From the NCBI GenBank assembly GCA_002772895.1, contig PFCS01000050.1, positions 6,728 to 70,727 of the forward strand: a stretch of DNA of 64,000 bases. The letters are read 5' to 3'. The translations under genes were made by a program, and so were the position numbers. Positions 5,110-54,709 of the stretch are shown piece by piece; positions within the stretch are counted from its first letter, which is position 1, and every line of letters starts with the position of its first letter. The notes under the pieces are model-generated. The model saw only the letters and a list, made by a program, of their open reading frames with translations. It searched no databases and was not told where the DNA came from. Source of the DNA: Parcubacteria group bacterium CG10_big_fil_rev_8_21_14_0_10_36_14 (GTDB lineage: Bacteria > Patescibacteriota > Patescibacteriia > GCA-002772895).

Positions 5110-5148
5110 AATAAACTTTCGTTTGCTATGCTTATTTTATTAAAAGCG

Positions 5149-5466: not shown

Positions 5467-5468
5467 AA

Positions 5469-6125
5469 TTATTTAAAAATTAAATCAAATAAGATATGGA
5501 AAGCGCCAGAAAGACGCTGACCTTTGCGTTTTGAATAAATCGTATATTTCACGGTAATAGGAAGCTCTTTATAGCTCAATTTTAATCGAGCAATTTCATG
5601 AACAATCTCTGACGCATGAGCCATCCTATCCTGACGGATTTTAATTTGTTCCGCTGCTTTGCGGTTCATTATACGAAAACCATTATGTGTATCCGTTAAT
5701 CTCAGTCCGGTGATAGCGCGAGTAAAAAGAATTGCGGATTTAAGAATTATTTTTTTAAAAAGAGGTATTCTATTCCCAGATAAAAATCTCGAACCTAAAA
5801 CTACGTCACATTTTCCGTTAATTACCGGGTGGCACAATCTTGAAATTTCTTCTGCTTCAAATTGACCATCGGCGTCGTATGTTACGACAACATCTGCGCC
5901 CTGCTTTAGGGCATAATTTATTCCTGTGCGCAGAGCTGCCCCCTGACCTCTATTTAAAATATGACGCAAAACCTTTACACCCGCAATCTCTGCAATTTTG
6001 CTTGTCTTGTCTTTTGAACCATCATCAACGACTACTATATCTTTATAAAACTTTTGCACGTCTCTAATCGTATCTGCAATAACAGACGCTTCATTATAAG
6101 CCGGAATGATGACAAAAGTTTGCAT
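5469..6125 (-). CDS. Polyprenol-phosphate sugar synthase, GT2 (DPM1/GtrB/ArnC-like).
   Basis: MQTFVIIPAYNEASVIADTIRDVQKF...VVVDDGSKDKTSKIAEIAG...VVTYDADGQ are the DPM1/GtrB hallmarks. Start trimmed to MQTFVII (the track start at 6197 would overlap the upstream SDR gene). Confidence 0.8.
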   Translation of the reverse strand: MQTFVIIPAYNEASVIADTIRDVQKFYKDIVVVDDGSKDKTSKIAEIAGVKVLRHILNRGQGAALRTGINYALKQGADVVVTYDADGQFEAEEISRLCHPVINGKCDVVLGSRFLSGNRIPLFKKIILKSAILFTRAITGLRLTDTHNGFRIMNRKAAEQIKIRQDRMAHASEIVHEIARLKLSYKELPITVKYTIYSKRKGQRLSGAFHILFDLIFK

Positions 6126-6132
6126 AGATATT

Positions 6133-7125
6133 CTAAATTCCAAAAAGTTCTTTATGTGCCAATGTGTAATCAACCGTCTTCTTAAGTCCATCTTCAAGGC
6201 GTACTAACGGCAACCACCCTAGCTCTTCTTTTGCTTTTTTAATATCTGGCAAAGCAAGCTCGGTTATAAATGGCAGTTCTTTTTTATAAACTATTTTAGA
6301 ATTTGAACCAGTCAGCTTCATAATTTTTTCTGCGACGCTTACAAGGCTCATATCGACATCAGAACCAATATTTACCGGGCCTATATTACTTTTTGCATCT
6401 ATTAATTTTTCCAAAGCATCAACAACATCGGCAACATAAACCATAGAGGTCTTAAATTTTTCATTTCCATATATTTCTAAGTTTTGATTCTGGGTAGCAG
6501 AAACAATAAAATCAATTATCATTTCTCCATCAAAAAGGCGTTGGCGAGGACCATAAACACGGAAAAGACGAGCAATCTTATAATCGGTTTTATAAACCTG
6601 GTGATATGTTGCTACAATTGTTTCCGCAAAACGCTTTCCTTCATCATAACAAGCGCGAGGAGAAAGATGGTCAACTATGCCTTCGGCATCTTCCAAAACT
6701 TTGCCTGCATTTTTTTCTCTTCCGCCATAAACAACCGATGAAGAAACGTGAACAAATTTTGATTTATATTTCAAAACCATCTCCATTATATTTTTCATTC
6801 CTTTAGCGTTTGCATCGAGTGTACTTATTTTATATTTTTCAAAATTTTTAGCCGATGTCGGACAGGCAAAATTTAAAATAGCGTATAATCCCTTGACATT
6901 AATCTGAAACCTTTGGAGTTCGGTCATTTTTTCTAAATCAAATTCCTGGCTTATGTCATGTTTTATAAACTCAAAATCAGAATTCTGAACCAAATGATTT
7001 ATATTTTTCTCACTGCCGGTAGAAAAATTATCCAAACAGATAACATTATATTTTTTTAGCAATCGTTCACATAAATGCGAACCAACAAATCCGGCTCCGC
7101 CGGCAACAAGCACATTTTTTTTCAT
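6133..7125 (-). CDS. NAD-dependent SDR; UDP-glucuronate decarboxylase (UXS)-like epimerase/dehydratase.
   Basis: MKKNVLVAGGAGFVGSHLCERLLKKYNVICLDNFSTGSEKNINHL parallels the UXS N-terminus. Catalytic Y/K sits in ACYDEGKRFAE (UXS: YDEGKRVAE). RLFRVYGPR parallels RIFNTYGPR. Confidence 0.7.
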   Translation of the reverse strand: MKKNVLVAGGAGFVGSHLCERLLKKYNVICLDNFSTGSEKNINHLVQNSDFEFIKHDISQEFDLEKMTELQRFQINVKGLYAILNFACPTSAKNFEKYKISTLDANAKGMKNIMEMVLKYKSKFVHVSSSVVYGGREKNAGKVLEDAEGIVDHLSPRACYDEGKRFAETIVATYHQVYKTDYKIARLFRVYGPRQRLFDGEMIIDFIVSATQNQNLEIYGNEKFKTSMVYVADVVDALEKLIDAKSNIGPVNIGSDVDMSLVSVAEKIMKLTGSNSKIVYKKELPFITELALPDIKKAKEELGWLPLVRLEDGLKKTVDYTLAHKELFGI

Positions 7126-7163: not shown

Positions 7164-9155
7164 TTATCTTGAAATAATATATGCGTTAAATTTTACTTTA
7201 CTGTCTTTTCCAAGCGGATATAGAGTTGCTGTACGATTGAAATACTTATCCCAAATGGATATTTCACTGCCCGTTCTAGTCAATATTTCATATTCATTAT
7301 CATTATCTCTATCTCCGGAAGAAACAAAGTCCGCACCACTAAATCCGGGAGATAATAAACGTCCATTTAATGTATAGGTCTTAACTATTTTACCATTTGT
7401 TAAAACTATTTCCGCCCATCCGTCATTATTCATATCTGCGACTGCCATACTTTTATTATATACATAAACAAATTCTCCTAAAAGTTCGCCTTTATTATTT
7501 AAAGTTTTTATATTATTTCCGATTGCAACAATTATCTCATCTTTTCCATCTTTGTTCATATCGCCCAAAGCTATTTGCGAAGCTATTCCCGCAATATCTA
7601 TCTCTTTACCCGCTTCTATTCCATTTTGATTATATACTCTTACTCTCTTTCCATTCCTCGCCTCCACTGTAATTATTTTTGATTTTCCATTACCGTCTAA
7701 ATCACCAATTGCCACTTTGACACCATTGCGGTTGTTGGTATCATAAGCGAAAAATTGATATTCCAATTCTCCGGATAAATTGAAAATTCGTATATGTGGA
7801 CCACCGCCTGCGCCTGCGCCGGCTACAATTTCTGTCATTCCATCATTATCAACATCTCCCAATGCCAAATTAACTCCGCCTCTAAAGCTAGGGGCAAAAG
7901 CATAAAATTCTTTTTTAACATCCCCTTTTCCGTCTAAAAGCCAAATTTTTGGCTCATCGCCTGGATTAGAACCTAAAACATACTTTACTTCCTGCTCTTT
8001 ATTTAATTCCATTGAAATCGGCTCATATCCTACAGTCTTTGCCACATTCAGTCTTCCGCTTCCCAAAAGTCCTGCAAAATACGGGTTTGCTCCATCAATA
8101 TTATCCGTGCTATTTATCAAAACTTCTGTTATCTCTTTATTTGTATAATTTGGATGAATGGCTTTGATTAAAACAGCAGCGCCACTTACTTGTGGAACTG
8201 ACATTGATGTGCCGTTTAGCTTTCCACCAAAAAATTTATTAAAATCACTATCTTTTGAACTATAAAATAAAGAACTATAGATATCTGTCGCTGGAGCTGA
8301 CAAGTCTATGCAACTTTTTCCATAATTGGAAAATTCTGCGCGTTTATCGTCTTTATCTACTCCGGCAACTCCCAAAACCCAGTTCTCGCCATTCTCACCG
8401 AAACAAACAGGATAAGATTTTATATTATCCAAATTAGTCCCATGATTATTACCGCTTTCATTTCCTGCCGCAGCCACCAATAAAATACCTTGTTGATAAG
8501 CTTTTTTTATTGTTTCTTCCAAATCTCTGGAATACCCCAGTCCGACAAAACTCATATTTATAATGTCTGCTCCATTTTTCATAGCATATTCTATAGCTCT
8601 TTGCACAATAACCGTATCTGACTCACCCAACTCATCAAAAGCCCGTAAAACCATTATTTTTGCCTTCCAAGCAACACCTGCTCCGGCAAAAGCGTTATTG
8701 CCTTCTGCCGCAATTAGACCGGCAACAGCTGTTCCATGATGAATTGCTATTTCTGTATGCCAATTTTCTAATTTTGGTTCTGGCTCATTATCATTTTCTA
8801 TAAAATCCCAGCCCTTTACGTCATCTATATATCCATTATTATCATCATCTAACCCATTCCCCGAAATTTCATTTGGATTTATCCAGATATTATTTTTCAA
8901 ATCCGGATGATCCATTTGAACCCCGGAGTCAATAACGGCAACAACTATGTCATTACTTCCTTGTGTTTCTATCCAAGCATCTGGAGCGCCAATTTTTTGT
9001 AAATGCCACTGATATTCTACTCCTATATCACTAACTGTTAATCCAGCAAGATAAAATTTTGCAGGAGACTCTTCTGCTTGACAAACGGGCGTAAAAAAAC
9101 CAAATACAAAAATAAATAAATGGACAAAAACTAATTTTTTTGAAAAATTATGCAT
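7164..9155 (-). CDS. Secreted subtilisin-like serine protease (S8) with C-terminal FG-GAP/VCBS-type repeats.
   Basis: Signal peptide MHNFSKKLVFVHLFIFVFGFFTPVCQA. Catalytic triad boxes are VAVIDSGV (Asp), HGTAVAGLIAA (His) and GTSMSVPQVSGAA (Ser). The C-terminal half carries repeated GDxDNDGxxEI / GDLDGNGKSKII / GDMNKDGKDEII motifs typical of FG-GAP. Confidence 0.85.
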   Translation of the reverse strand: MHNFSKKLVFVHLFIFVFGFFTPVCQAEESPAKFYLAGLTVSDIGVEYQWHLQKIGAPDAWIETQGSNDIVVAVIDSGVQMDHPDLKNNIWINPNEISGNGLDDDNNGYIDDVKGWDFIENDNEPEPKLENWHTEIAIHHGTAVAGLIAAEGNNAFAGAGVAWKAKIMVLRAFDELGESDTVIVQRAIEYAMKNGADIINMSFVGLGYSRDLEETIKKAYQQGILLVAAAGNESGNNHGTNLDNIKSYPVCFGENGENWVLGVAGVDKDDKRAEFSNYGKSCIDLSAPATDIYSSLFYSSKDSDFNKFFGGKLNGTSMSVPQVSGAAVLIKAIHPNYTNKEITEVLINSTDNIDGANPYFAGLLGSGRLNVAKTVGYEPISMELNKEQEVKYVLGSNPGDEPKIWLLDGKGDVKKEFYAFAPSFRGGVNLALGDVDNDGMTEIVAGAGAGGGPHIRIFNLSGELEYQFFAYDTNNRNGVKVAIGDLDGNGKSKIITVEARNGKRVRVYNQNGIEAGKEIDIAGIASQIALGDMNKDGKDEIIVAIGNNIKTLNNKGELLGEFVYVYNKSMAVADMNNDGWAEIVLTNGKIVKTYTLNGRLLSPGFSGADFVSSGDRDNDNEYEILTRTGSEISIWDKYFNRTATLYPLGKDSKVKFNAYIISR

Positions 9156-9969: not shown

Positions 9970-11328
9970 ATGCTTATTTTAACTAAAATTAAACAATTAA
10001 CTTTACTTTTTGGCGATTTTTTAATACTTCTCGCTTCTCTTTATTTTACCTTGATTGTCCGCTATAGTCAAACTGGAGCAGTAGATCACTGGCAAGAGCA
10101 TTTTTATCCTTTTGCTATTATTTATTTTATCTGGCTTTTAGTATTTTATTCGCAAAATCTATACAATTTGAATTTCGCTAAAAATAATCTCTTCTTTTTT
10201 AAAACACTTTTTGAAGCATTTTTAATAAATATTTTCATAGCGACTTTTTTCTTTTATTTTACTCCTTTTTTCGGAATTGCGCCGAAAACAAATTTATTCT
10301 TAAACGTCATCTTAGCAGGTTGTCTTGTTTTTGTTTGGCGAGGAATTTTCAACCTTTTTACTGCAAAATATTTATTTGTAAATAAAATTGCTTTTTTGGG
10401 ATACTCTAAAGAGGTGGAAGAACTTGCTAAAGCTTTTGAAGCCGAACCTCAACTTGGATATAAAGCCGTGTGTGTTATTCATGATGAAATAATCAACACG
10501 TTTCTTAAACAAGTATCAATGCATGAGCTTCTAAATAGTGTCAAAGAACTCGGCGTTAATACTGTAGTAATCCACCATGGAAAAAATCTTGATAACGACA
10601 CAGCCAATAAACTCTACAAACTTATTTTCTGTGACTTATCTTTTATTAATTTATTAGATCTCTACGAAGAAATAACCGGCAAGCTTCCCTTGGAAACGCT
10701 CTCTCGAGGATGGTTTCTGGAAAACCTAATGGAATCTGAAAAAAAAATATATGACCGAATAAAAATTTTGGGCGACTTTATTCTAGCTCTTTTCTGTAGC
10801 GTAATACTTATTGTTCTTTTTCCTTTTGTTGCAATAATAACACTACTCATAGATAGGGGTCCTGTCTTTTATTCTCAATATCGCATAGGACGAGGAGGAA
10901 GGCCTTTCAAAATATATAAATTTAGGACAATGATAAAAAATGCTGAAAACGGAAATGCGGTGTTTGCACAAAAATCCGATAGCCGTGTTACGCCTTTTGG
11001 AAAATTTTTGCGAAAAACAAGAATTGACGAACTACCACAAATACTAAATGTTCTACGCGGAGAAATGAGTTTCATCGGACCGCGTCCGGAACGACCAGAA
11101 TTTGTAGAAGAATTATCGCAAAAAGCGTCGTTCTATCCTTTGCGTCATCTTTCAAAACCGGGACTAACCGGTTGGGCGCAAATCAACTATCCTTATGCTG
11201 GTAACATTGAAGAAAATGTAAAAAAATTACAATATGATATATACTATATAAAAAACCGTTCTTTCCTTTTGGATGCAACAATAATTCTCAAAACCTTCAA
11301 CATTATCCTAAGATTTAAAGGAAGATAA
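9970..11328 (+). CDS. Undecaprenyl-phosphate sugar phosphotransferase (WbaP/WcaJ-like 'bacterial sugar transferase'); initiating enzyme.
   Basis: N-terminal multi-TM region. C-terminal catalytic domain reads PFKIYKFRTMIKNAE...RVTPFGKFLRKTRIDELPQILNVLRGEMSFIGPRPERPEF, the canonical PF02397 signature. Confidence 0.85.
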   Translation: MLILTKIKQLTLLFGDFLILLASLYFTLIVRYSQTGAVDHWQEHFYPFAIIYFIWLLVFYSQNLYNLNFAKNNLFFFKTLFEAFLINIFIATFFFYFTPFFGIAPKTNLFLNVILAGCLVFVWRGIFNLFTAKYLFVNKIAFLGYSKEVEELAKAFEAEPQLGYKAVCVIHDEIINTFLKQVSMHELLNSVKELGVNTVVIHHGKNLDNDTANKLYKLIFCDLSFINLLDLYEEITGKLPLETLSRGWFLENLMESEKKIYDRIKILGDFILALFCSVILIVLFPFVAIITLLIDRGPVFYSQYRIGRGGRPFKIYKFRTMIKNAENGNAVFAQKSDSRVTPFGKFLRKTRIDELPQILNVLRGEMSFIGPRPERPEFVEELSQKASFYPLRHLSKPGLTGWAQINYPYAGNIEENVKKLQYDIYYIKNRSFLLDATIILKTFNIILRFKGR

Positions 11329-11354
11329 AAATCAAACTGTAGCCTTGTATTTAC

Positions 11355-12515
11355 ATGCCATATATTCGCTACCTCAACCATCACTTATCACGACAATTAA
11401 ACGAACTATACGTGAGTACGGTTATTTTTTCTTTTGGACAATCAATGATTTTGCTTTTTATACCGATTTATTTATACCAGCTAGGGTATGACGCCAAAAA
11501 AATACTTTTGTTTTTTGCTGTTCATTATTTTATATACAGTATAATATTGCCTTTTTTTGGAAAAATAATTTCTCGAATTGGCTATGAATCATCAATTGGC
11601 TGGTCTATGCCTCTTTATACTATTTTTCTCGTTTCACTTTTCGGAATAAGCCAATTTCCAATACTCTTTTATATCTCCGCAATCGCCTGGGCAATCTATA
11701 AGTCATTGTATTGGCCGGCATTTCATGCTGATTTTACAAATTACGGTAATATTGATGCTGTGGGAGAAGAGATAGGCTCATTAAAAGTTATAGTAGGTAT
11801 CACAAGCATTTTAGGCCCGACGATTGGCGGTTTTATTTTAATGAAAATCGGTTTTAACGCCTTATTTATTATTGTTGTCGCTTTATCTTTTATTTCTATC
11901 ATTCCTCTTTTAATAAGCAAAGAAAAATACGAAAAACAAGAATATTCAATAAAAAGAGTTCTAAAAAAATTCATCTCACCTCTTTACAGAAATGATGTCA
12001 TTGCCAATTTAGGAACCGGGGAAGATGTTATTGCACAATCAATCTGGCCAATATTCCTCTTAACTATATTCACAAATTATGAAGACATAGGAATACTCAC
12101 TACTATCTCTTTATTTATTGCCTTTATAATGATTATTTTTGTAGGAAAACTAGCAAATAAACCAACACGAACCCGCCTAATCAAAACAACTACAGCAATT
12201 GTTTCCCTTGCTTGGTTTGCGCGTATTTTTTCTTTTAACTGGTTATCACTTTTTGCTAGCGATAGTTTATATAAAACTTCAAAAAGGACACTTGATGTGC
12301 CGGTTCAGGCATTAGTTTACAGTCGACCAAATAGAAAACGCCTTTTGAATTATTTAATCTTTCGAGAGATGGCACTTTCATTAGGTAAAACGCTCACAGC
12401 TATATTGGGATTTTTGGTAGTTCTCTTTACAGGAGAAATGATTTTTACTTTTGCGTTGGCTGGAGTTCTTGCATTATTCTATTTTTATTGGACGGATAAA
12501 ATATTAGAAAAATAA
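11355..12515 (+). CDS. Polytopic membrane protein, MFS-transporter-like. A Wzy-like polymerase cannot be excluded.
   Basis: About 10-12 predicted TM helices across 386 aa. Two motif-A-like loops (FGKIISRIGYE and VGKLANKPTRTRL) favour MFS. Confidence 0.45.
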   Translation: MPYIRYLNHHLSRQLNELYVSTVIFSFGQSMILLFIPIYLYQLGYDAKKILLFFAVHYFIYSIILPFFGKIISRIGYESSIGWSMPLYTIFLVSLFGISQFPILFYISAIAWAIYKSLYWPAFHADFTNYGNIDAVGEEIGSLKVIVGITSILGPTIGGFILMKIGFNALFIIVVALSFISIIPLLISKEKYEKQEYSIKRVLKKFISPLYRNDVIANLGTGEDVIAQSIWPIFLLTIFTNYEDIGILTTISLFIAFIMIIFVGKLANKPTRTRLIKTTTAIVSLAWFARIFSFNWLSLFASDSLYKTSKRTLDVPVQALVYSRPNRKRLLNYLIFREMALSLGKTLTAILGFLVVLFTGEMIFTFALAGVLALFYFYWTDKILEK

Positions 12516-12580: not shown

Positions 12581-13483
12581 TTATAAATAGATTTCCTTTA
12601 CTCTTCTTATTCCTTCTTCAATGTTTATTCTAGGTTCCCAATCAAGCAACTCTTTTGCTCTTGTTACGTCCGCGATAGTGTCTTGCGGATCACCTTTTCT
12701 TCTTTCCAGGTACACTCTTTCTCCGCCAATCAAATCGGCTATTTTATTAATACTTTGATTATTGGCCGCTCCAATATTTATAACATCGCCTTTTCCAGCT
12801 TTAGAACTCATTGCAGCTTTTAAATTTGCCTCCACTACATCATCAACATAAGTAAAATCACGGGTAATCTCACCATCACCAAAAATAGTAAATGCTTTTC
12901 CCTCTTTTTTTTGTTTTATAAACGTAGCGATTGCAGTTGTATATGCTCCGTGGAAAGCCATCTTTGGACCATAAACATTAAAATAACGTAAGGAAACGCC
13001 CTCTAAACCAAACAGGTCATAAAAATTTTTTATATAAAGCTCTCCAACATATTTCTGCACTCCATACGGACTAAGGGGCGCTACCGGCATACTTTCTTCT
13101 AAGGGCATCTTAGTTTGTGCGCCATATGCAGATGATGATGCTGAATATACAACGCGCTTCAATCCATTTTCTTTGGCCGCCATTAAAACATTAATCGTCG
13201 ACTCAACGTTATTGCGGTTAGTCTCTCTCGGCTTTTCTATTGAAAGGGGCACGCGCGCCAAAGCCGCAAAATGAAAGGCATAATCTACTCCTTTGAAATA
13301 GTGTTTCATTATTTCATAGTCGCAAAGGTCAACTTCATAAAAGCTTGCGCGCGGATCAATATTCTCGCGCACTCCGGTTGATAAATTATCCAATATCAAA
13401 ACTTCGTGCCCAAGATCCAGCGCCTTTTGTGTAAAATTAGATCCGATAAAACCAGCCCCTCCTGTGACTAAAAATTTTGACAT
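12581..13483 (-). CDS. NAD-dependent sugar epimerase, SDR family (GalE/WbpP-like UDP-hexose 4-epimerase).
   Basis: MSKFLVTGGAGFIGSNFTQKALDLGHEVLILDNLSTG is the GxxGxxG Rossmann signature. The YxxxK catalytic region falls around YGVQKYVGE. Length 300 aa. Confidence 0.75.
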   Translation of the reverse strand: MSKFLVTGGAGFIGSNFTQKALDLGHEVLILDNLSTGVRENIDPRASFYEVDLCDYEIMKHYFKGVDYAFHFAALARVPLSIEKPRETNRNNVESTINVLMAAKENGLKRVVYSASSSAYGAQTKMPLEESMPVAPLSPYGVQKYVGELYIKNFYDLFGLEGVSLRYFNVYGPKMAFHGAYTTAIATFIKQKKEGKAFTIFGDGEITRDFTYVDDVVEANLKAAMSSKAGKGDVINIGAANNQSINKIADLIGGERVYLERRKGDPQDTIADVTRAKELLDWEPRINIEEGIRRVKEIYL

Positions 13484-13488
13484 ATTTT

Positions 13489-14280
13489 TTATTTTCCTTC
13501 TTTACCAACTAAATTATTATTAATTTCTTCTACGATTTTTAAAAGTCGTTGCTCCGCACCAAGCCGATCACCAAGCTGAATAAATGCTCTTGTATCTTTT
13601 GGAAGACATTTGCCTCCATAACCACGGTAACCTTTGTGCATTACTTTTAGATGAGAAGGGCCTATTCGCTTATCTGCAGCCGCGCACTCAGAAACTAAAT
13701 CATAGTCGGCATTTAATTTTTCACACACATCATACATCTGATTTGCAAAGATTACCTTTGTAGAAAACCATGTATTATTAAAATATTTTATGAGTTCTGC
13801 AACTTTTGCCGGAACAATCCGTTCAAATGGAGCCAAAGGCAACATAAGTACTATATCTTTCGCAACTGTAAAGCTTTTTTCCGTATAACCCACAATTTGT
13901 CTGTCCGGATAACTCATATCCTGGTCAGCCGTAACTTCAGTTAAAAATTCCGGATTAAATAATATCTTGTGCTGAGGGAATTCTTCCTGTAACATATCGG
14001 TAGAACCGGGTAAAATCGTAGATTTTAAAACAATTATTTTTTCGCCTATTAAGATAGAAAAAGCCTGTCTTACATAGGATAAATCAAAGCCACCCCTTTC
14101 TTCATCATAAGGAGTAGGCACACAAACAAAAATTATATCAGCCTTATTGATTTCTTCTTTTGAGTCTAATCCTCTTGGCGGATCATACAAAATTGGCATC
14201 TCACCATTTTTTTCAAAAAAACGGGCCATAGCTCCTCCAACCATCCCTACACCCATTATTCCAATTTTATAATTTTGCAT
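13489..14280 (-). CDS. UDP-glucose/GDP-mannose dehydrogenase family protein, compact form lacking the C-terminal UDP-binding domain.
   Basis: IGIMGVGMVGGAMA (NAD-binding), ILFNPEFLTEVTADQDMSYPDRQIVG and GYRGYGGKCLPKDTRAF (catalytic Cys box, cf. GGSCFPKD). The ORF is only 263 aa and ends just after the central domain; the next gene starts 6 nt later. Confidence 0.65.
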   Translation of the reverse strand: MQNYKIGIMGVGMVGGAMARFFEKNGEMPILYDPPRGLDSKEEINKADIIFVCVPTPYDEERGGFDLSYVRQAFSILIGEKIIVLKSTILPGSTDMLQEEFPQHKILFNPEFLTEVTADQDMSYPDRQIVGYTEKSFTVAKDIVLMLPLAPFERIVPAKVAELIKYFNNTWFSTKVIFANQMYDVCEKLNADYDLVSECAAADKRIGPSHLKVMHKGYRGYGGKCLPKDTRAFIQLGDRLGAEQRLLKIVEEINNNLVGKEGK

Positions 14281-15005: not shown

Positions 15006-15767
15006 TTAGTATTTTAATTGATTATTTTTTTTAATTGTATCTATCCCGTAACAATACTTTGAAAACGCTTCACGATTTAATTCATGCTTTTGGATAACCT
15101 TATGCAACCACCCTGGTAAAATATTATTATACTTTATTTCCATTATTGCTAAATCACGAAAAATTGGATTAAAATTTTTTCTATCTGTAAAACTTCCCGC
15201 GCCAGCCGCTTCAATATCATAGTCAAAGGTTATGCGTAAATTATTATCAAAACGCGAAACTAACGGATTCCTCTTATAGCGAACTAACACTAATGGCAGC
15301 ATTGAATAGCTCCGCTGTCTTACCGTAAATTCTTCAAGAATATCACTATCTCTATCATTTTTTTCAAAATGCAATACCTCACCGCTTATCGCTCTTCTAT
15401 AATTGTCTATGCTTAAAAAAGTTCTATCTTTTACAACGATAGCATCCGACTTCCTTTTAATTTCTAAAAAAATTGTTTGTGGATTATCTAACTGCTCACC
15501 GTAAGTTCTTAAGCGAAGTTTTGCCCTATTTTTCATTCCGCTAATTTTTTCATTGTAGCATCTAAGTGTTGGGCTGTCAAAGTATATACTATTTACAGAA
15601 TACCCATCCTGTCCCAATTCTAAAAATGGATCACGCACTAAATGATTTCTAAGTAGAACGCTATACATTTGACCCATTTCTCTTTTAGGTAAAAAATATT
15701 TAAATTCAAACCTCTGGAATCTATTTTTAATTTTTTGGTTGTCTACACCTACTTCGCTATCGTTCAT
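15006..15767 (-). CDS. VTC-domain (polyphosphate-polymerase-like, CYTH/triphosphate-tunnel fold) protein.
   Basis: RFQRFEFKYFLPKRE...SIYFDSPTLRCYNEKISGMKNRAKLRLRTYGE...FLEIKRKSD matches the VTC-domain pattern (cf. ERHEYKYLI) of alternating charged beta strands. Confidence 0.6.
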   Translation of the reverse strand: MNDSEVGVDNQKIKNRFQRFEFKYFLPKREMGQMYSVLLRNHLVRDPFLELGQDGYSVNSIYFDSPTLRCYNEKISGMKNRAKLRLRTYGEQLDNPQTIFLEIKRKSDAIVVKDRTFLSIDNYRRAISGEVLHFEKNDRDSDILEEFTVRQRSYSMLPLVLVRYKRNPLVSRFDNNLRITFDYDIEAAGAGSFTDRKNFNPIFRDLAIMEIKYNNILPGWLHKVIQKHELNREAFSKYCYGIDTIKKNNQLKY

Positions 15768-16129
15768 ATTATAGATAAAATTTTATCATTTTTAGAATCT
15801 TTGTAATAAATATTTTTTAATTTACGACTCTGATCTATGTCCGGTAAAATAGTTATTTGCGGATTAGCCACAAATACCTGTTCAACCAATAAAGCATCAC
15901 CGTCTCTGTCAATAGAGATACAATTAATATTCATAATTTTTACAATCGGACTTATTAAAATAGCACCTTGGAGTAACGCCCTTCTAATATCGCCATCACT
16001 CACAACTCCAAGTAAAGTATCGTTTGAATCTACAATAAAAGCTGCCCCCTTCTGATTAGAGTTTATTGCCTCCATAGCTTCCATTATATTGGCAGTTTCA
16101 CTAATAACAAGATCGCTATCTTTAAACAT
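15764..16129 (-). CDS. CBS-domain pair protein.
   Basis: 121 aa. ...AAFIVDSNDTLLGVVSDGDIRRAL... and ...LLVEQVFVANPQITILPD... are two CBS-like modules. It overlaps the VTC gene by 4 nt (ATGA). Confidence 0.55.
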   Translation of the reverse strand: MFKDSDLVISETANIMEAMEAINSNQKGAAFIVDSNDTLLGVVSDGDIRRALLQGAILISPIVKIMNINCISIDRDGDALLVEQVFVANPQITILPDIDQSRKLKNIYYKDSKNDKILSII

Positions 16130-16133
16130 AAAA

Positions 16134-17279
16134 TTAAAAAGTTATCCTTTTTATTAAAAGTTTGTCATCTATTTTTAAATTCTTTAAAATATTCACGATA
16201 CGTTCTGACGAAGCACCGTCCCCATATGGGTTCACCGCTTGGGAAACAATCGTTTTAAATTCAGCCGACAATGCTCTTTTTATTGCAGACACTACCTCGT
16301 TGGTATCATAACTAGAATGTATTATATTTGTAGCATACTCGCGACCCAACTGTCGTCTACCTACATTAACTGTTGGCAACTTAAAAACAGGTGATTCGAT
16401 AAGCCCGCTTGAAGAATTGCCTATCATTACTGAGGCAACATTCATAATTCCAGCATATTCTCTCCGAGGTAAATTTCTAAAAATTTTCGTCAAAGGCGAA
16501 CGATTTTTATTTATAACATTGCGCACTTCTTTACTTCCGGCATCAGAATTAGGAAAAATAATTACAACCTGTGCACCAAAAGAATTCACTGCCTGCAAAA
16601 CTTTTACAGTATTCTCTGCAGCACTTGCATATTCTTCGGTTACTGGATGCATAACCAAAAGAAAAATGGGCTTACTTGAATCAAAACCAAATTTGTTAAA
16701 AATTTCTTCTTTTGGAGCAATCTCCGAACCATCAACTAGCTCATCCAACATTGGCGCACCAGTATTATAAACCCTAAAATCCTGTTCCCCGCTTTTAATT
16801 AAGCGATCAGCCGCTTGTTGGCTAGCAGCAAAATGAACGTGCGCATATCTTGCAATTGCATGGCGAGTAGCATCATCAATATTCCCCGATACTTCACCAG
16901 CTTGAATATGCGCAACGGGTATATAGAGATGCGATCCTGTTATAGCCGCCATTAACTGCTCCCCTCTATCACCTGCGAGAAGAATAATATCTGGCTTAAG
17001 ACGATCAATAGCTTCTGGAGCTTGCATCAAAAATACTCCAAGAGATTTTACCATCGTTTGATGATTATAGCCATCAAAAGTATTATGTATTGATTCTGAT
17101 ATTTTAAAACCATCTTTTTTTATTTCTTGCGCACTATATCCGAATTCATGCAAAAGATGCAAATTTGTTATAATAATTTCATATTCTAAATCCGGATCTT
17201 TTTCAATCCTTCTAATAATTGGGCGAATATATCCATATTCTCCTCTTGACCCCGTAATTATAGCTATTTTTCGTGACAT
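16134..17279 (-). CDS. neuC: UDP-N-acetylglucosamine 2-epimerase, hydrolysing type (NeuC/LegG family).
   Basis: MSRKIAIITGSRGEYGYIRPIIRRI...DIILLAGDRGEQLMAAITGSHLYIPVAHIQAGEVSG...HMGNMENA is the NeuC-family (Epimerase_2) pattern. 381 aa. Confidence 0.8.
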   Translation of the reverse strand: MSRKIAIITGSRGEYGYIRPIIRRIEKDPDLEYEIIITNLHLLHEFGYSAQEIKKDGFKISESIHNTFDGYNHQTMVKSLGVFLMQAPEAIDRLKPDIILLAGDRGEQLMAAITGSHLYIPVAHIQAGEVSGNIDDATRHAIARYAHVHFAASQQAADRLIKSGEQDFRVYNTGAPMLDELVDGSEIAPKEEIFNKFGFDSSKPIFLLVMHPVTEEYASAAENTVKVLQAVNSFGAQVVIIFPNSDAGSKEVRNVINKNRSPLTKIFRNLPRREYAGIMNVASVMIGNSSSGLIESPVFKLPTVNVGRRQLGREYATNIIHSSYDTNEVVSAIKRALSAEFKTIVSQAVNPYGDGASSERIVNILKNLKIDDKLLIKRITF

Positions 17280-17282
17280 AAT

Positions 17283-17957
17283 TTATTTCAATAAAAAACG
17301 GGCGATTTCTAGATCAAACAGTGTATTTATATCTACGCCCTCTTTTTCTTCAACTACTATAAATGCACTTTTTCCTCCTAAAATTTTGCCACTTTCCTTT
17401 AAAACGCTTGATTTAATAATATACCCTACTCCCGCCTCTTTGTAAAGTGGATCTCTTTCCTGGCTTCTACGCGAAGCATTAGAAAAAAGCGGCGCCCAGT
17501 GGCTATCTTTATTAATCAGCCAAAAGTAGCTTCTATCTTCAATAACAGTACCTACCGAGTCAAATCCTTCATCAATAACCTTATATATCATCTTCTCAAT
17601 CGTATGCTGTTCTCGCATTGGAGAAGTCGGCTCAAGCAATAAAAGATAATCAAAAATCTCGCCTTTTATTAAAAACTCATCTAAAACATTTATTAAAACC
17701 GGTTCTGTTTTTATCATATCTCCAGACAGCTCTGCTGAACGCTTTAATGCTTCCGCTCCATAAGCGGACGCTATAGACAAAATTTTCTCACTATCTGAAG
17801 AAACAACAATCTTATCAATTATAGAAATTTTTTTAGCTAATTCAACCGAATATGCTAAAAGCGGTTTACCATTCAAATCGATGATATTTTTTTCAAGTAT
17901 TCTTTTTGAGCCTCCACGCGCTGGGATAACAGCAACGATTTTTTTATTTTTATACAT
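17283..17957 (-). CDS. neuA: Acylneuraminate (nonulosonate) cytidylyltransferase, CMP-NulO synthetase (NeuA/LegF family).
   Basis: KIVAVIPARGGSKRILEKNIIDLNGKPLLAYSVELAKK...VVSSDSEKIL is the CTP_transf_3 signature. 224 aa, as for short NeuA/LegF. Confidence 0.8.
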   Translation of the reverse strand: MYKNKKIVAVIPARGGSKRILEKNIIDLNGKPLLAYSVELAKKISIIDKIVVSSDSEKILSIASAYGAEALKRSAELSGDMIKTEPVLINVLDEFLIKGEIFDYLLLLEPTSPMREQHTIEKMIYKVIDEGFDSVGTVIEDRSYFWLINKDSHWAPLFSNASRRSQERDPLYKEAGVGYIIKSSVLKESGKILGGKSAFIVVEEKEGVDINTLFDLEIARFLLK

Positions 17958-17959
17958 AT

Positions 17960-18994
17960 TTACTCCAAATCATTCCATTGCAAAATAGCATTTTTTGCAA
18001 TATCATGTTTAGTTTTACGACCAAACAAACCCTCTGAAAATATTTTATCTAAAAATTTTGCTGGTATGCCTGTACCCGGACGCGCAGCCCTCAAATTATG
18101 CGCACCAACTACTTCTCCGGCTCCTATGTCGTCCTTGGCTATAACGCTGTGATGAGCCCAATCGCGCACGTCCTGCTCTTCTTTGGTTATATTTTTTTCT
18201 GAAAAAAGTGTTTTCTCTACCTTTCTTATTGCGGAGACCAATTCTTTAAATTCTTCCGGATCTAATGACACGAGGTCGTCTGGTCCATGTAAATCACGAA
18301 TTGTAAAATGTTTCTCAATCACTCGCGCACCTAACGCTACTGCAGCTATAGAGCTATAAATTTCTTTAGTATGATCCGAATGACCAATTAAAATTCCAAA
18401 TTCTTTTTCTAAAATATTAATCAAATTCAAATTCAAATGCTCATAGTTAGCAGGATATTCGGATGTGCAGTTGGTTAGAACAAAATCAACACCTTCTTCC
18501 TTAAGTACAGCTACCGTTTCCCTAATTTCATCCATTGTACACATACCAGTTGAAACAATCATCGGTTTTCTCTTCTTGGCTATATGACGAATCATCGTAA
18601 GATTTGTCATTTCACCAGAACCGGTTTTAAATGCTTTAACTCCAATTTCATCCAAAATATCGGATGCTTCAATACAAAAGGGTGTACATAAATATTGTAT
18701 CCCAATTTCATTACAATACTTCATTAATTCTTTGTGCTGTTCTTTTTCACCAATGTTAACTTTCGCCAAAATTTTGTCTAATGACCCTGCCCAAAAATTA
18801 ATAACATTGGGAACCATTTCTATTTCCGGAATATGTAATTGAAATTTGGCAATATCGGCCCCGACATTTTTTGCCATCCTTATAAGCTCCTTAGCATTTT
18901 CCATATTTCCCATATGTTCGCATGCAATTTCAGCTATAACAACAACTGGGGTAGTTTTTCCAATAATAATATTTCCAAATTTTATATCTTTCAT
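17960..18994 (-). CDS. neuB: N-acetylneuraminate (nonulosonic acid) synthase, NeuB/LegI/PseI family, with C-terminal SAF domain.
   Basis: PVVVIAEIACEHMGNMENAKELIRMAKNVGADIAKFQ, ...FKTGSGEMTN..., ...VSTGMCTMDEI... and ...GHSDHT... are NeuB TIM-barrel motifs. C-terminal SAF/antifreeze-like segment reads SVIAKDDIGAGEVVGAHNLRAARPGTGI. 344 aa. Confidence 0.85.
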   Translation of the reverse strand: MKDIKFGNIIIGKTTPVVVIAEIACEHMGNMENAKELIRMAKNVGADIAKFQLHIPEIEMVPNVINFWAGSLDKILAKVNIGEKEQHKELMKYCNEIGIQYLCTPFCIEASDILDEIGVKAFKTGSGEMTNLTMIRHIAKKRKPMIVSTGMCTMDEIRETVAVLKEEGVDFVLTNCTSEYPANYEHLNLNLINILEKEFGILIGHSDHTKEIYSSIAAVALGARVIEKHFTIRDLHGPDDLVSLDPEEFKELVSAIRKVEKTLFSEKNITKEEQDVRDWAHHSVIAKDDIGAGEVVGAHNLRAARPGTGIPAKFLDKIFSEGLFGRKTKHDIAKNAILQWNDLE

Positions 18995-19023
18995 AAATTT
19001 TATATATCCATCTTTTTTAAATA

Positions 19024-19046
19024 AAGCCCCGTCATGGATGGGGCTT
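19024..19046 (-). terminator. Hairpin terminator downstream of the B12-rSAM gene, splitting the long minus-strand run ahead of neuB.
   Basis: aagcccc-gtcatggat-ggggctt is a 7-bp GC-rich stem with a 9-nt loop in the 58-nt gap 18995-19052. The minus-strand read-through is followed by an A/T-rich tract. Confidence 0.45.
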
Positions 19047-19052
19047 AAAAAA

Positions 19053-20657
19053 TTATTTTTTCATCTGGGTTCCAGATAGAATACCTTCGTCCCCATTTAA
19101 TTTTAATTTTCTTACATTATGATAAGTAGGAAAAGCCTCCATTAAAATTCTCCACCGTTTATATAAATCTTCACGCGAACACCATGGTGTATTAATCTGA
19201 ACAACCTCAGGTGTCACGGCAGCATAAGAAACGGTCACTAACGTATCTGTGCTATCAGGAAATACAAGATACCCAAATTTTTCACAAAATTCATAAAGTT
19301 CTGTACCAGGAAGTGGCGTAGTAATCAATGGGGTTATACCCTTAGACCCCATATAATGAAACTTTTCTAAAAATTTTAATGTCTTCTCAAAGCTTCTCTC
19401 GTCTTCACCTTGAATATAAGAGTTCCCTTTACTGTCTCTAAAATAAAACTCTTCGTATTTTGGTACATTTCGATAACTTGATCTTTTTATTTTTCCACCC
19501 GGATAACCAACGATCAAAAAGCAACTGAACGGAAGTTTCGCCTCGTTGCACCAATCAGCTACCTGAAGCGCCTGATCTAAATGTTGAAAAGCATTAAACT
19601 TATTCATGGCTACGAGTATTCGCTCATCACCAGACTCTACTGGCAAATAAAGAATTTCCACTCCTGCTCGCGCTATTGCAAAAACAACTTCTTTGTCCAT
19701 CTTCTCCAACATAACACCATTTGGAAAGGTACATTTCAGATCATGTCCTTTTTCTCGAATTTTTGCAATACCGTCTAAAATTTCGAGAACACGTTTCTTA
19801 TTAAACGTAAAATTATCATCGGCAATCTCTATCCGATTTATGCCAAATTCTTCAATACAAAACCTTATTTCTTTTAATACTCTCTCTGTGGAAAATGCCC
19901 GAAAACGCTGACCCTTTTCTGGAGATGAACAAAATTGGCAATCAAAGGGGCATCCTCTAGAACTAATTAAATGAAGGGTTCTGTCAACTCTATTGCCCCA
20001 TGTAGACAATGTTACATATTCTTCCATGGGTCTAAATCTATAACTTGGAAAAGGTAGCTTATCTATGTCTCTAAATTGCTCTACACGCAAACCCGTATCT
20101 TTAATTGTCCCATCGGGCAAACGACACACTAACCCCGGAATGTTTTCCCAAGGTTCGTCATTCAATATGCGCGTAAAGGCTATTTCACCCTCGCCTCTTA
20201 CCACAATATCAGCTCCCGACTCTTCAATAACCTCTCGTGGCAAAGTAGTTGCCAATACGCCACCGACAACAACTGTTATTTTGGAAAAAATAGATTTTAT
20301 CTTTTTAACCAGCGGATACAAGGCCAATCGAGAATCAGTAAACGGTGCATTAATACCAATAATATCTGTCTCTTTTGGAATACGACCAATAATCCATTCA
20401 TCAGAATGTCCAAAACGCCTAATTGGTTGCTGCCTTAAATTATAAACCTCTTCGCTAATTGCTTCTCCACCCTCCATCATCGGATCAATAAAGGCAATAA
20501 TTAAGTGCCCATTTTCTTCTGCATAAGCACCAACATACCCTAACCCGAGTTGCTGTGATCTAAATTCTACCTCATTGTAAAAGAGCCATGGACAAGCGAT
20601 AAGACATACTTTTTTTCGTAGCAACCTATGTTCTATATTTTCTTCACGCTTTTCCAT
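19053..20657 (-). CDS. B12-binding-domain radical SAM enzyme (class B rSAM; putative methyltransferase).
   Basis: N-terminal cobalamin-binding-like Rossmann segment (KVCLIACPWLFYNEVEF...LGLGYVGAYAEENGH) and radical SAM cluster motif SSRGCPFDCQFCSS. 534 aa. Paralogous to 37111-38520 and 60043-61452. Confidence 0.8.
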   Translation of the reverse strand: MEKREENIEHRLLRKKVCLIACPWLFYNEVEFRSQQLGLGYVGAYAEENGHLIIAFIDPMMEGGEAISEEVYNLRQQPIRRFGHSDEWIIGRIPKETDIIGINAPFTDSRLALYPLVKKIKSIFSKITVVVGGVLATTLPREVIEESGADIVVRGEGEIAFTRILNDEPWENIPGLVCRLPDGTIKDTGLRVEQFRDIDKLPFPSYRFRPMEEYVTLSTWGNRVDRTLHLISSRGCPFDCQFCSSPEKGQRFRAFSTERVLKEIRFCIEEFGINRIEIADDNFTFNKKRVLEILDGIAKIREKGHDLKCTFPNGVMLEKMDKEVVFAIARAGVEILYLPVESGDERILVAMNKFNAFQHLDQALQVADWCNEAKLPFSCFLIVGYPGGKIKRSSYRNVPKYEEFYFRDSKGNSYIQGEDERSFEKTLKFLEKFHYMGSKGITPLITTPLPGTELYEFCEKFGYLVFPDSTDTLVTVSYAAVTPEVVQINTPWCSREDLYKRWRILMEAFPTYHNVRKLKLNGDEGILSGTQMKK

Positions 20658-20761: not shown

Positions 20762-22132
20762 CTATTTAACTAAAATTTCCAATAAAGAATTGGCAATTCT
20801 TTTATTAGCTTGCCCATCATTTTTATAACATAATTGTTCCACTATCCTTCTTCTTCCTTCACTATGCAGGCTATAATTTTCTAAATATTCATTAATCTGA
20901 TTCTTTAAATCCTCAGGACTACTCACCATGCTAACTCCGCCGGTTTCAACCACGTCATTAAAGTGACTGAAAGAATAAAAATAATTTACCGAATGCCTAA
21001 AATCTGCCTGTGGCACAGCATCAAACGCTATGCTTATAAGTGGCTTATCTAGCATTGATCCGTCCAAAGAAAGCGTTGAACAGGTAGATATTATTACATC
21101 CGAATGATAAAGCATATTAAAAAAATCAATCATTTCTTCTTTTGACGCATCCCACGAATCTAAAAATAGATTTGTTATTCTGTGTTTATTGTCTATATAA
21201 ACAAAATCGTATTTATTAAATTCGAGAAAACGTTTTTTTTCTATGTCCGAATAATGCGGACGGATGACCAAAGAAGCATCGTGCAATAATTCTTTATTTT
21301 TTATAAAATTGCATATTATATTAGCCACTCCCTCATCTGCCCGACCCCAAAGACCTTCTGAACCAAAAAAAATTAATTTTTTATTGGGGTCAAGCCCCTT
21401 TTTTTTAAAAAATTCTTCTCTCAAAATAATTAATTCTTTTTTGGAATAAATATCAAACTGCGGAAATCCTGTAACTAAAATTTTTTCGGCACATATATTC
21501 TGCAAGTTACTAACCGTCTCCTTCATTGATTGATTAAATACTATCATTTTGTCTGGTTCTACCCTAAAAAGCCGACGATCAACCGTATCCCATCCTTTTG
21601 CCATAGCAACTGTTTTTATTTTCTTTTTTTTAGCAATCTTTAGAAAAGCAATATCTACTTTCCCTAAAATAGTAGTAGAAAAAATTAGGTCTGGTTTATA
21701 TTTATCAAAAAAGTGTTCATATTTTTTTTCTTTAAAAAGATAGAGTTCCAGCCATCTAAAAATTTTTTTTAAAACGGTGCTTTGTGATAAAACCCCAAAT
21801 ATACCAGCCTCCAAAAAATATATAATTGTATTTTTACCTTTTTTTTTGTACGTTCCATAACGCGACAATAGCCGCGAACCTTTCGTATAAACAAGATTAT
21901 CAATCAATGGAAGAAAAAATTTTCTTTGTATCCTTGATAACTCACCTTCTCCAGTATTTTCAATAATAATTCTCGAATGATTAAATTCTTCTTTAAGATA
22001 TTGAGGTGCTTCTGAAGGAAGCATCAAAACAATTCTGATATTTTCGTCTCTTAATAAATGATCTATTATTCCTGTTCTTAATATATTTCTCGCAATGATT
22101 CCTCTACTTATAATAATAAAAATTGTTTTCAT
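20762..22132 (-). CDS. CDP-glycerol glycerophosphotransferase family (TagB/TagF-like) protein; putative polyol-/sugar-phosphate transferase.
   Basis: C-terminal HSDVIISTCSTLSLDGSMLDKPLISIAFD parallels the TagF motif DILITDYSS...LLDKPIIFYAYD, and VIRPHYSD parallels the TagF histidine region. 456 aa. Paralog of 25248-26615. Confidence 0.55.
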   Translation of the reverse strand: MKTIFIIISRGIIARNILRTGIIDHLLRDENIRIVLMLPSEAPQYLKEEFNHSRIIIENTGEGELSRIQRKFFLPLIDNLVYTKGSRLLSRYGTYKKKGKNTIIYFLEAGIFGVLSQSTVLKKIFRWLELYLFKEKKYEHFFDKYKPDLIFSTTILGKVDIAFLKIAKKKKIKTVAMAKGWDTVDRRLFRVEPDKMIVFNQSMKETVSNLQNICAEKILVTGFPQFDIYSKKELIILREEFFKKKGLDPNKKLIFFGSEGLWGRADEGVANIICNFIKNKELLHDASLVIRPHYSDIEKKRFLEFNKYDFVYIDNKHRITNLFLDSWDASKEEMIDFFNMLYHSDVIISTCSTLSLDGSMLDKPLISIAFDAVPQADFRHSVNYFYSFSHFNDVVETGGVSMVSSPEDLKNQINEYLENYSLHSEGRRRIVEQLCYKNDGQANKRIANSLLEILVK

Positions 22133-24313: not shown

Positions 24314-25237
24314 TTATATTAATTTTGCATTAAGACGTTTTAATGCCCACCTCTCCAAATTCTTGCCATTAATCCCCAACTTAGTGCTTAATGCCACATC
24401 ATAGCCTAATTCTTCTAAAATAGCAATGGTATTCGCATTATAATTTCCATGAGGATAAGAAATGGCATAAATAGGAATGTTTATAATATTTTCTAATATA
24501 TCTTTTGGCTTTTTTATTTCTTCATACATATCGTTTTTCGATAGCTCATCTAAACGTAAATGCCTATCGCCATGCGTCCCGATTGTCATTCCCGCCTCCG
24601 CCATTTCCGCTATTTCGCGTTTATTTAAATAAAGATTTTCGCAAAATTCTCTTTCATCACCTATATATTTCGGAAAAACTGCGCCTAAAAACTCCATCTT
24701 CTTTTCTTCAGGCAAAGTTTGTAAAATAATTTTCAAATTAACCGTAAGCACATCATCATATATATACCTATCGTCTCTTTTTTCTTTATCACTTAAAGCA
24801 AATTCTTTTTGTATCGTTTTATTTTGTTTTTTAATAAACTCATAATATTCTTCCGCTAATCTTTTTGTACCTATTTTAGCAAGTAAAAAATGCACCTTAT
24901 GTACATTGGCTACTTTTCCCTCTAAAGACATCGTGATAGGAAAAAATACACCCTTTATTCCATATTTTTTTAAAATCGGAAAGACACTGTCATAATGATC
25001 ACTCAATCCATCATCAAAAGTAAAAACACACGCCTTTGATGGTAACTCTTTTTGTCCTAATACGGATTGTCGCACGTCTTCTAAAGAAATTATTTCATAT
25101 TCGCTTTTAAATCTTTCAATATGATTCTTAAATAAGTCTGTCCCTATAGCATTTATCTTTGGAAAGGGCGTTTTATCCGCATCTCGCACATAATGATACA
25201 TTATTATAGCCAATTCTTTTTCTTGTCCTTCTTTCAT
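24314..25237 (-). CDS. Polysaccharide deacetylase (NodB-homology, CE4).
   Basis: ACVFTFDDGLSDHYDSVFPILKKYGIKGVFFPIT (NodB motifs 1-2) and GTHGDRH (His motif). Confidence 0.75.
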   Translation of the reverse strand: MKEGQEKELAIIMYHYVRDADKTPFPKINAIGTDLFKNHIERFKSEYEIISLEDVRQSVLGQKELPSKACVFTFDDGLSDHYDSVFPILKKYGIKGVFFPITMSLEGKVANVHKVHFLLAKIGTKRLAEEYYEFIKKQNKTIQKEFALSDKEKRDDRYIYDDVLTVNLKIILQTLPEEKKMEFLGAVFPKYIGDEREFCENLYLNKREIAEMAEAGMTIGTHGDRHLRLDELSKNDMYEEIKKPKDILENIINIPIYAISYPHGNYNANTIAILEELGYDVALSTKLGINGKNLERWALKRLNAKLI

Positions 25238-51679: not shown

Positions 51680-51687
51680 ATATTTTA

Positions 51688-53189: not shown

Positions 53190-53190
53190 A

Positions 53191-54708: not shown

Positions 54709-54709
54709 A

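Follow-up and report, generated by a model that had tools for sequence, protein, structure and literature searches.

A nonulosonic acid biosynthesis operon with a free-standing CBS pair in a Parcubacteria glycan island

Sialic acid synthesis in Escherichia coli K1 and Neisseria meningitidis depends on NeuC, NeuB and NeuA, encoded together in one operon, and needs no dehydratase, aminotransferase or acetyltransferase. Legionaminic acid (Leg) clusters, such as lga of Acinetobacter and LegB/C/H/G/I/F with PtmE of Campylobacter jejuni, combine enzymes of the same three types with a pair of CBS domains. Synthases of nonulosonic acids (NulOs) are widespread in environmental bacteria (PMC8208679). 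A literature search found no work linking NulOs with Patescibacteria or Parcubacteria. Genomes of the Candidate Phyla Radiation (CPR) are very small, and a life in attachment to host cells is assumed for these bacteria. Here we describe a four-gene NulO cassette in a Parcubacteria genome of the CPR, on a 64,000-nucleotide stretch of contig PFCS01000050.1 (the window), the whole of which is one glycan-biosynthesis island of about 34% G+C.

The cassette contains the three enzyme families of the E. coli K1 and N. meningitidis pathway, at only 27-35% identity to the E. coli K1 counterparts. It differs from the E. coli K1 system in that its NeuA lacks the C-terminal esterase domain (224 versus 418 amino acids (aa)), NeuD and a polysialyltransferase are missing, and the putative NulO transferases resemble TagB. 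Unlike the classical sialic acid clusters, it is accompanied by a CBS-pair gene and a B12-binding radical S-adenosylmethionine (radical-SAM) gene. With the Leg clusters the cassette shares NeuC-, NeuB- and NeuA-type enzymes and a CBS pair of the same subfamily; there, however, the pair forms part of a protein of about 350 aa that also has an NTP_transferase domain, whereas in the cassette it is free and no NTP_transferase follows. The enzyme families are established ones, and GenBank already carries annotations of the genes. The literature searched does not describe the distinct clade to which the cassette belongs, the nearly obligate CBS pair, whether free or joined to NeuA, the B12 radical-SAM gene that recurs beside the cassette, or a CPR genome with two NulO gene sets.

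The NeuB-NeuA-NeuC-CBS operon

Four genes make up the cassette, given here in the order of transcription (NeuB, NeuA, NeuC, CBS):

17960..18994, minus strand: NeuB1, NulO synthase condensing phosphoenolpyruvate (PEP) with a 2-acetamido-hexose, first cassette gene; 344 aa; PF03102 243.5 bits, SAF 32.8 bits
17283..17957, minus strand: NeuA1, CMP-NulO synthetase (cytidylyltransferase); 224 aa; PF02348 (CTP_transf_3) 75.1 bits
16134..17279, minus strand: NeuC1, hydrolysing UDP-HexNAc 2-epimerase, pathway entry; 381 aa; PF02350 257.7 bits, TIGR03568 (NeuC_NnaA) 391.6 bits
15764..16129, minus strand: free-standing CBS pair (Bateman module); 121 aa; PF00571 (CBS) 33.5 bits

The intergenic gaps are 2 (NeuB1/NeuA1), 3 and 4 nucleotides (nt), and the CBS gene overlaps the next gene, encoding a VTC-domain protein, by 4 nt. 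A first-pass annotation of the window had proposed a complete NulO operon at 15764-18994 on the minus strand, and all four reading frames were recovered there with family matches (E-values from 1e-7 to 1e-117). The tight packing it described is real, and the CBS protein, which it placed ahead of the other genes, is in transcription order the last of the four. The locus was recovered in several independent assemblies. NeuB1 is 100% identical to a deposited protein of a Parcubacteria metagenome-assembled genome ('Parcubacteria group bacterium CG10_big_fil_rev_8_21_14_0_10'); its GenBank name, 'CMP-N-acetylneuraminic acid synthetase', is a misnomer, the protein being a synthase and not a cytidylyltransferase. 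The E-values, taken with the same order of genes seen in independent assemblies and other phyla, rule out chance. The four genes are a genuine, intact NulO biosynthesis operon.

NeuB1 keeps all mapped catalytic, metal and PEP ligands of N. meningitidis NeuB (1XUU), the mapped catalytic residues being identical in the two proteins: E22, K50, Q52, K123, S126, E128, S148, Y180, S206, H208, E227, H229, D239 and R305. Among the residues compared in N. meningitidis numbering, the NeuB1 clade carries a substitution, W279, where N. meningitidis NeuB has F288, which in the 1XUZ structure reportedly contacts the sugar substrate. The same N. meningitidis enzyme is the best solved relative of NeuB1 (191 bits, 35% identity), and PseI reaches 163 bits. 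The refuting case named in the first-pass annotation, a NeuB homologue that clusters with KDO-8-phosphate synthases, does not apply: NeuB1 is a PF03102 protein, and its only trace of a KDO- or DAHP-type synthase is an 18.6-bit match to the DAHP synthase model (cut-off 486), which rules out that identity.

NeuC1 scores above the equivalog cut-off of TIGR03568 (391.6 versus 235.9 bits), a model that also covers LegG-type enzymes, and reaches only 123 bits on the WecB model. The motifs GDR, GE-SG-IDD-RH, HP, NSSSG and RQ-GR are common to NeuC1, LegG and human GNE and are invariant within the NeuC1 clade. Among its solved relatives, Acinetobacter LegG (5XVS) scores 237 bits, the epimerase domain of human GNE (4ZHT) 206 bits, and SiaA of N. 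meningitidis only 36 bits. For NeuA1, the best NCBIfam match is PseF (140.4 bits, below the cut-off of 205.7), and the best solved relatives are synthetases of CMP-N-acetylneuraminic acid (CMP-Neu5Ac), namely 6IFD (84 bits) and the mouse enzyme 1QWJ (74 bits).

That both NeuB1 and NeuA1 fall under their equivalog cut-offs is the one point in favour of regarding the genes as non-functional relics, or as genes for another 2-keto-3-deoxy acid such as 3-deoxy-D-manno-octulosonic acid (Kdo) or 2-keto-3-deoxynononic acid (Kdn). We consider this very improbable. The reading frames are intact and tightly coupled, the catalytic residues are kept, and the cassette is conserved across phyla; neither Kdo nor Kdn needs a NeuC-type hydrolysing epimerase, and no KdsA-type match was obtained.

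Related loci and the predicted product

Neighbour-joining trees (200 bootstraps) were built with E. coli K1 neuB, neuA and neuC from UTI89, with N. meningitidis NeuB, PseI, LegG and GNE from PDB alignments, and with 26 loci with LegG relatives from named genomes, canonical Acinetobacter Leg clusters included. NeuB1, 31-40% identical to every reference in its tree, falls in a clade (99% bootstrap) of uncultured lineages only, namely CPR, Omnitrophica, SAR202 and Desulfobacterota. This clade is separate from a group (77%) in which the Leg-cluster synthases are found with E. coli NeuB, the E. coli K1 protein itself nesting among them. NeuC1 lies in a 98% clade outside the 100% clade of LegG, E. 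coli NeuC and Thaumarchaeota. The NeuA tree lacks resolution; the NeuA genes of the cassettes are not monophyletic in it, and it yields no type assignment. As judged by sequence comparison, NeuB1 and NeuC1 represent a distinct clade of uncultured lineages, with only 31-40% identity to characterised enzymes. The NeuB tree splits clades yet names no sugar, in agreement with the first-pass view that the exact nonulosonate cannot be assigned from sequence.

Genomes of CPR, Omnitrophica, SAR202 and Kaiserbacteria combine NeuB, NeuA, NeuC and CBS genes, and a metagenome scan with the NeuC1-clade alignment added 80 further loci (50-68% identity). Neighbourhoods were counted in those metagenomic loci whose upstream flank measured 4 kb or more (39 loci), where the following genes lay near NeuC:

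NeuB: 34 of 39 loci
NeuA: 32 of 39 loci
B12 radical-SAM: 13 of 39 loci
TagB-like glycosyltransferase: 12 of 39 loci
Hexapeptide acyltransferase: 2 of 39 loci
DegT aminotransferase: 1 of 39 loci

In canonical Leg clusters, by contrast, DegT lies directly upstream of LegG, and a CBS plus NTP_transferase protein of about 350 aa precedes LegF. Because its relatives almost never have DegT nearby, unlike the Leg clusters, the cassette would need no 4-amino precursor and would start from UDP-N-acetylglucosamine (UDP-GlcNAc); this is the strongest argument on the product. It supports the Neu5Ac-like product that had been proposed as the simplest reading, and is a better ground for it than the one given at the time.

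With a confidence somewhat better than even, we favour a self-contained cassette that leads directly from UDP-GlcNAc to CMP-Neu5Ac or a near derivative of it. NeuC1 would convert UDP-GlcNAc to N-acetylmannosamine (ManNAc) by epimerisation and hydrolysis, NeuB1 would join ManNAc and PEP into Neu5Ac or a close derivative, and NeuA1 would activate this product with CTP. The CBS pair would serve as a nucleotide- or nucleotide-sugar-sensing regulatory subunit acting on NeuA, NeuC or both; two upstream TagB-like glycosyltransferases would probably put the activated sugar on a surface glycan, and the conserved B12 radical-SAM enzyme may modify the sugar. As in the sialic acid pathway of E. coli K1 and N. 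meningitidis, such a route needs no 4,6-dehydratase, 4-aminotransferase or N-acetyltransferase, and the operon contains none. Were the product plain Neu5Ac, the result would amount to a routine annotation together with a useful regulatory lead.

Several observations weigh against this assignment. NeuB1 reaches 300.4 bits on TIGR03569, the N-acetylneuraminate synthase equivalog, below its cut-off of 399.65, and is at about 35% identity no closer to E. coli and N. meningitidis NeuB than to PseI (34%). It also stays below the cut-off of the PseI model (245.9 versus 340.25 bits). The nearest solved structure to NeuC1 is LegG, an enzyme specific for 2,4-diacetamido-bacillosamine (diNAcBac), and the trees, built by neighbour joining, include few characterised references. 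Modified precursors could be supplied by a DegT aminotransferase and three short-chain dehydrogenase/reductase (SDR) genes elsewhere in the window. Finally, a second NeuA/NeuC/NeuB set lies on the same island; either set could be the maker of plain Neu5Ac, or neither.

The affinity to LegG would fit a legionaminic-type pathway in which NeuC1, NeuB1 and NeuA1 act as LegG, LegI and LegF on UDP- or GDP-diNAcBac made elsewhere in the genome, the CBS pair being the remnant of a PtmE-type CBS-nucleotidyltransferase. Consistent with such a pathway, the pair has homologues in the CBS portion of the PtmE/LgaF-like proteins that Leg clusters encode (29-51% identity), and P0051, a member of the NeuB1 clade, is labelled N,N'-diacetyllegionaminate synthase by JGI. 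The DegT aminotransferase (50576..51742) also scores 218 bits on the LegC model (cut-off 420), and the SDR epimerase/dehydratase genes score 86-146 bits on the LegB model (cut-off 475). All LegB, LegC and PseC scores in the window are, however, far under the cut-offs of 420-475. DegT lies 32 kb from the cassette, beside a GFO/MocA 3-dehydrogenase-like gene, a pairing that suggests a 3-amino sugar route; 38 of the 39 related cassettes have no neighbouring aminotransferase, and NeuB1 and NeuC1 stand outside the clades of Leg-cluster enzymes. We judge legionaminic acid to be an unlikely product. The statement of the first-pass annotation that no PseB/LegB-type dehydratase is evident thus holds for the operon, while the window does contain the SDR and DegT genes, all below the LegB, PseB, LegC and PseC cut-offs. 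It also contains a WecB-type epimerase.

A pseudaminic acid pathway was rejected: the epimerase is of the NeuC type, scores for PseI, PseB (at most 45 bits) and PseC (284.5 bits for the DegT gene, cut-off 423.5) are below the cut-offs, and no PseG or PseH match was found among the scanned proteins. The earlier distinction between a NeuC-type and a PseG-type hydrolase therefore disposes of pseudaminic acid but leaves legionaminic acid standing, as LegG (5XVS) is the nearest solved structure to NeuC1.

A third view of the product arises from the gene directly upstream of the cassette:

19053..20657, minus strand: B12-binding radical-SAM enzyme (class B), conserved accessory of the cassette; PF02310 and PF04055

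This enzyme matches no NCBIfam equivalog (best score 149 bits against a cut-off of 575) and is only 25-27% identical to the two other B12 radical-SAM enzymes of the window. Its orthologues lie directly upstream of the cassette in a CPR relative (L004, 59% identity) and an Omnitrophica relative (L036, 53%), and in several loci a B12 radical-SAM gene stands between the cassette genes, in the order NeuA-radical SAM-NeuB in L053, L083 and L099 and NeuB-radical SAM-NeuC in L055. This recurrence, seen in 13 of the 39 loci, flags a possible new sugar modification. Together with W279 in place of F288, it would suit a novel NulO whose Neu5Ac-like skeleton, free or CMP-activated, is modified by the cobalamin-dependent enzyme before transfer, for example by C-methylation. 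On the other side, two thirds of the related loci have no radical-SAM gene, 58 nt with a weak hairpin separate it from neuB in the window, and the window holds two more B12 radical-SAM enzymes and many methyltransferases acting on glycan parts. A literature search turned up no precedent for a radical-SAM-modified NulO, and we know of none. We regard a modified NulO of this kind as a doubtful candidate. The broader idea of an undescribed NulO branch, common in CPR and other uncultured lineages, is likewise put forward only as a tentative, rather improbable proposal. Its flux would be set by a CBS pair that senses a CMP-ulosonate or a nucleotide, either on its own or as part of the CMP-synthetase, and the B12 radical-SAM enzyme would tailor the sugar, for example by C-methylation, into an as yet uncatalogued NulO chemotype.

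The hairpin at about 19012..19034, in the gap between the radical-SAM gene and neuB, was rejected as a terminator. It folds no better than shuffled sequences (z = -1.43) and was not picked up by the consensus scan; it was not counted as a transcript boundary.

The CBS pair

In a structure model, the two tandem CBS motifs of the 121-aa protein fold as one beta-alpha-beta-beta-alpha pair module. Its best Foldseek matches are 4O9K and 3K2V (E 5e-8, TM about 0.7), both CBS pairs of KdsD/KpsF-type arabinose-5-phosphate isomerases, and its best NCBIfam match is KpsF/GutQ (48 bits). The KdsD/KpsF/GutQ isomerases share with it the pair fold and a DGD(I/L)RR motif, and their pathway, like that of the cassette, ends in a CMP-activated 2-keto-3-deoxy sugar acid. 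These isomerases, however, carry the CBS pair as the C-terminal part of a fusion with a SIS isomerase domain; the cassette protein stands alone. A GVxSDGDIRRALL motif is common to the CBS protein and its relatives, PtmE-like CBS pairs and E. coli KpsF. The first-pass annotation had linked the CBS protein to the legionaminic acid pathway of Campylobacter. This link is borne out by a collinear alignment with the N-terminal CBS pair of the PtmE/LgaF-like CBS-nucleotidyltransferases of canonical Leg clusters; the protein itself is a bare CBS pair and not a CBS-nucleotidyltransferase. PtmE is reportedly a glucosamine-1-phosphate guanylyltransferase.

A word-index search with the CBS protein matched only itself. 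An exhaustive HMMER search gave 2497 relatives at E <= 1e-3, the best of them mostly free-standing proteins of 100-145 aa. Among the longer relatives checked, the module was present in 10 of 10 and N-terminal in 9 of 10, fused to NTP-transferases, GT2 glycosyltransferases, SDR epimerases and, in one case, a DegT aminotransferase. From these comparisons, the CBS protein is a modular, non-catalytic unit of nucleotide-sugar pathways.

The position of the module is nearly fixed among related cassettes. NeuC is followed by a free-standing CBS gene (113-132 aa) in six of the seven genomic loci with NeuB1-clade genes. In the metagenomic loci, 75 of the 80 have room downstream of NeuC, and a CBS pair adjoins NeuC in 69 of these. 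It is a free-standing gene directly after NeuC in 53 and a CBS reading frame with uncertain boundaries in two more; in 14, NeuC is followed by a CBS-NeuA fusion of 358-374 aa (one cut by the contig end), with CBS at residues 9-55 or so and CTP_transf_3 from about residue 131; the one in L093 spans 5148..6266. In several loci separate CBS and NeuA genes overlap by 4 nt, like a split form of the fusion.

The CBS pair of the cassette would thus appear to be the detached form of a module that is fused to the N-terminus of NeuA in relatives and to a PtmE-type nucleotidyltransferase in Leg clusters. Given its fusions to NeuA and its constant position behind NeuC, the module probably has a regulatory role, at the entry into the pathway, at the activation of the sugar, or at both. 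Its fusions to NeuA and other nucleotide-sugar enzymes suggest that it would bind an adenosyl or other nucleotide ligand and control a partner enzyme. The CBS pair of 4O9K, we presume, contains CMP-Kdo, in which case a CMP-ulosonate sensor would be an appealing model; a literature search returned nothing on CBS domains with nonulosonic acids, on 4O9K, or on CMP-Kdo with CBS. Human GNE is inhibited by CMP-Neu5Ac, and the CBS pair could act as a feedback sensor in a similar way. It offers a cheap and concrete hypothesis for the control of NulO synthesis.

Neighbouring genes, a second gene set and the rest of the island

Two paralogous glycosyltransferases of 455 aa lie upstream of the cassette:

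20762..22132, minus strand: TagB/TagF-like GT-B glycosyltransferase, candidate NulO transferase 1; PF04464 42.2 bits, NF046086 65.6 bits
25248..26615, minus strand: TagB/TagF-like GT-B glycosyltransferase, candidate NulO transferase 2; NF046086 57 bits; paralogue of copy 1 (34% identity, tblastn)

NF046086 is the BFO_1060 family. BFO_1060 is the orthologue of the genetically proven pseudaminic and legionaminic acid transferases of Tannerella forsythia (Tanf_01245, TFUB4_00887), proteins with a TagB-like domain (PMC5420450). Both window glycosyltransferases match the BFO_1060 model and the TagB/TagF Pfam family, but their scores of 57-66 bits on the former are far below the family cut-off of 200 bits. 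By this analogy they are candidate NulO transferases.

Downstream of the cassette lie two further genes on the same strand:

15006..15767, minus strand: VTC-domain protein; PF09359 139 bits
14321..15001, minus strand: DUF4956 membrane protein; PF16316 60.8 bits

Both show translational coupling to the CBS gene and are probably co-transcribed with the cassette here. They were rejected as members of it, being present in none of the 80 related loci. VTC, DUF4956 and CotH genes are often found together. The island also encodes two large CotH-kinase proteins with beta-helix domains (32622..35312; 55840..58659), and no such protein occurs in the 80 related NulO loci.

The second NulO gene set, which the first-pass annotation overlooked along with the conserved B12 radical-SAM gene and the TagB-like transferases, is dispersed over the window:

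29638..30342, minus strand: NeuA2, second CMP-NulO synthetase; PseF 176.6 bits, below the cut-off of 205.7; 34-38% identity to NeuA1
30455..31648, plus strand: NeuC2, second hydrolysing 2-epimerase, divergent from NeuA2; TIGR03568 373.1 bits, above the cut-off of 235.9; 36% identity to NeuC1
63326..64000, plus strand: NeuB2, second NulO synthase, cut by the window end (225 of 368 aa); found by tblastn; 32% identity to NeuB1

The two sets share 32-38% identity. Full-length NeuB2 (P0271, 368 aa) scores 248 bits on TIGR03569, below the cut-off of 399, and NeuB2 and NeuC2 group with genes of a Flavobacterium locus (86% and 72% bootstrap). NeuB2 has Asp (D137 of P0271) for the catalytic Glu134 of N. 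meningitidis NeuB; this E134D change is also present in an Acinetobacter Leg-cluster synthase and has been described for archaeal and eukaryotic synthases (PMC8208679). No Leg or Pse precursor genes were found beside NeuB2, a solo gene among glycosyltransferases and SDRs. Of the related metagenomic loci that span 10 kb or more (40 in all), nine likewise carry two or more NeuB-like genes. Presumably each of the two sets in the window yields a sugar of its own.

The glycan island runs at least 10 kb past the window end. More than 70 kb of this CPR genome is given to surface-glycan genes, two parallel sialic-acid-like routes included, indicating that the cell surface is a major investment of the organism. 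GC skew is strongly and uniformly negative, and almost all genes are on the minus strand, the exceptions being 9970..12515, 30455..31648, 55840..58659 and those from 63326 onwards. An Rfam scan of the window gave no RNA family.

The stretch 50576..55717 contains a GFO/MocA oxidoreductase (UDP-GlcNAc 3-dehydrogenase-like, 158 bits), a 505-aa protein that is in part GNAT/FemAB-like and in part DegT-like, the DegT aminotransferase and a methyltransferase, and resembles a pathway for a 3-amino or 2,3-diamino sugar more than a NulO supplier. B12-binding radical-SAM enzymes are encoded three times in the island (19053..20657, 37111..38520, 60043..61452), together with no fewer than eight genes for class-I SAM methyltransferases (at 22136, 28737, 40348, 41269, 44185, 45172, 49955 and 52470), a load that suggests heavily methylated glycans. 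The organism is probably unable to make its own cobalamin.

Some neighbours recur in related loci. A shortened nucleotide-sugar dehydrogenase (263 aa, with no C-terminal domain; 162 bits on TIGR03026, cut-off 190) and a 300-aa TviC/GalE-like SDR at 12581..14280 reappear as a pair near the cassette of the closest relative, L004 (666..2422). A NodB-type polysaccharide deacetylase (24314..25237) recurs beside the cassette in L005, L036, L056, L059, L067, L068, L086, L094 and L118, accompanied by a formyltransferase in L036 and L056, a hint that the sugar or its acceptor may be de-N-acetylated and then acylated anew. At the edge of the island, a secreted S8 subtilisin-like protease with C-terminal FG-GAP/VCBS-type repeats (7164..9155) adjoins a Bac_transf priming glycosyltransferase (9970..11328).

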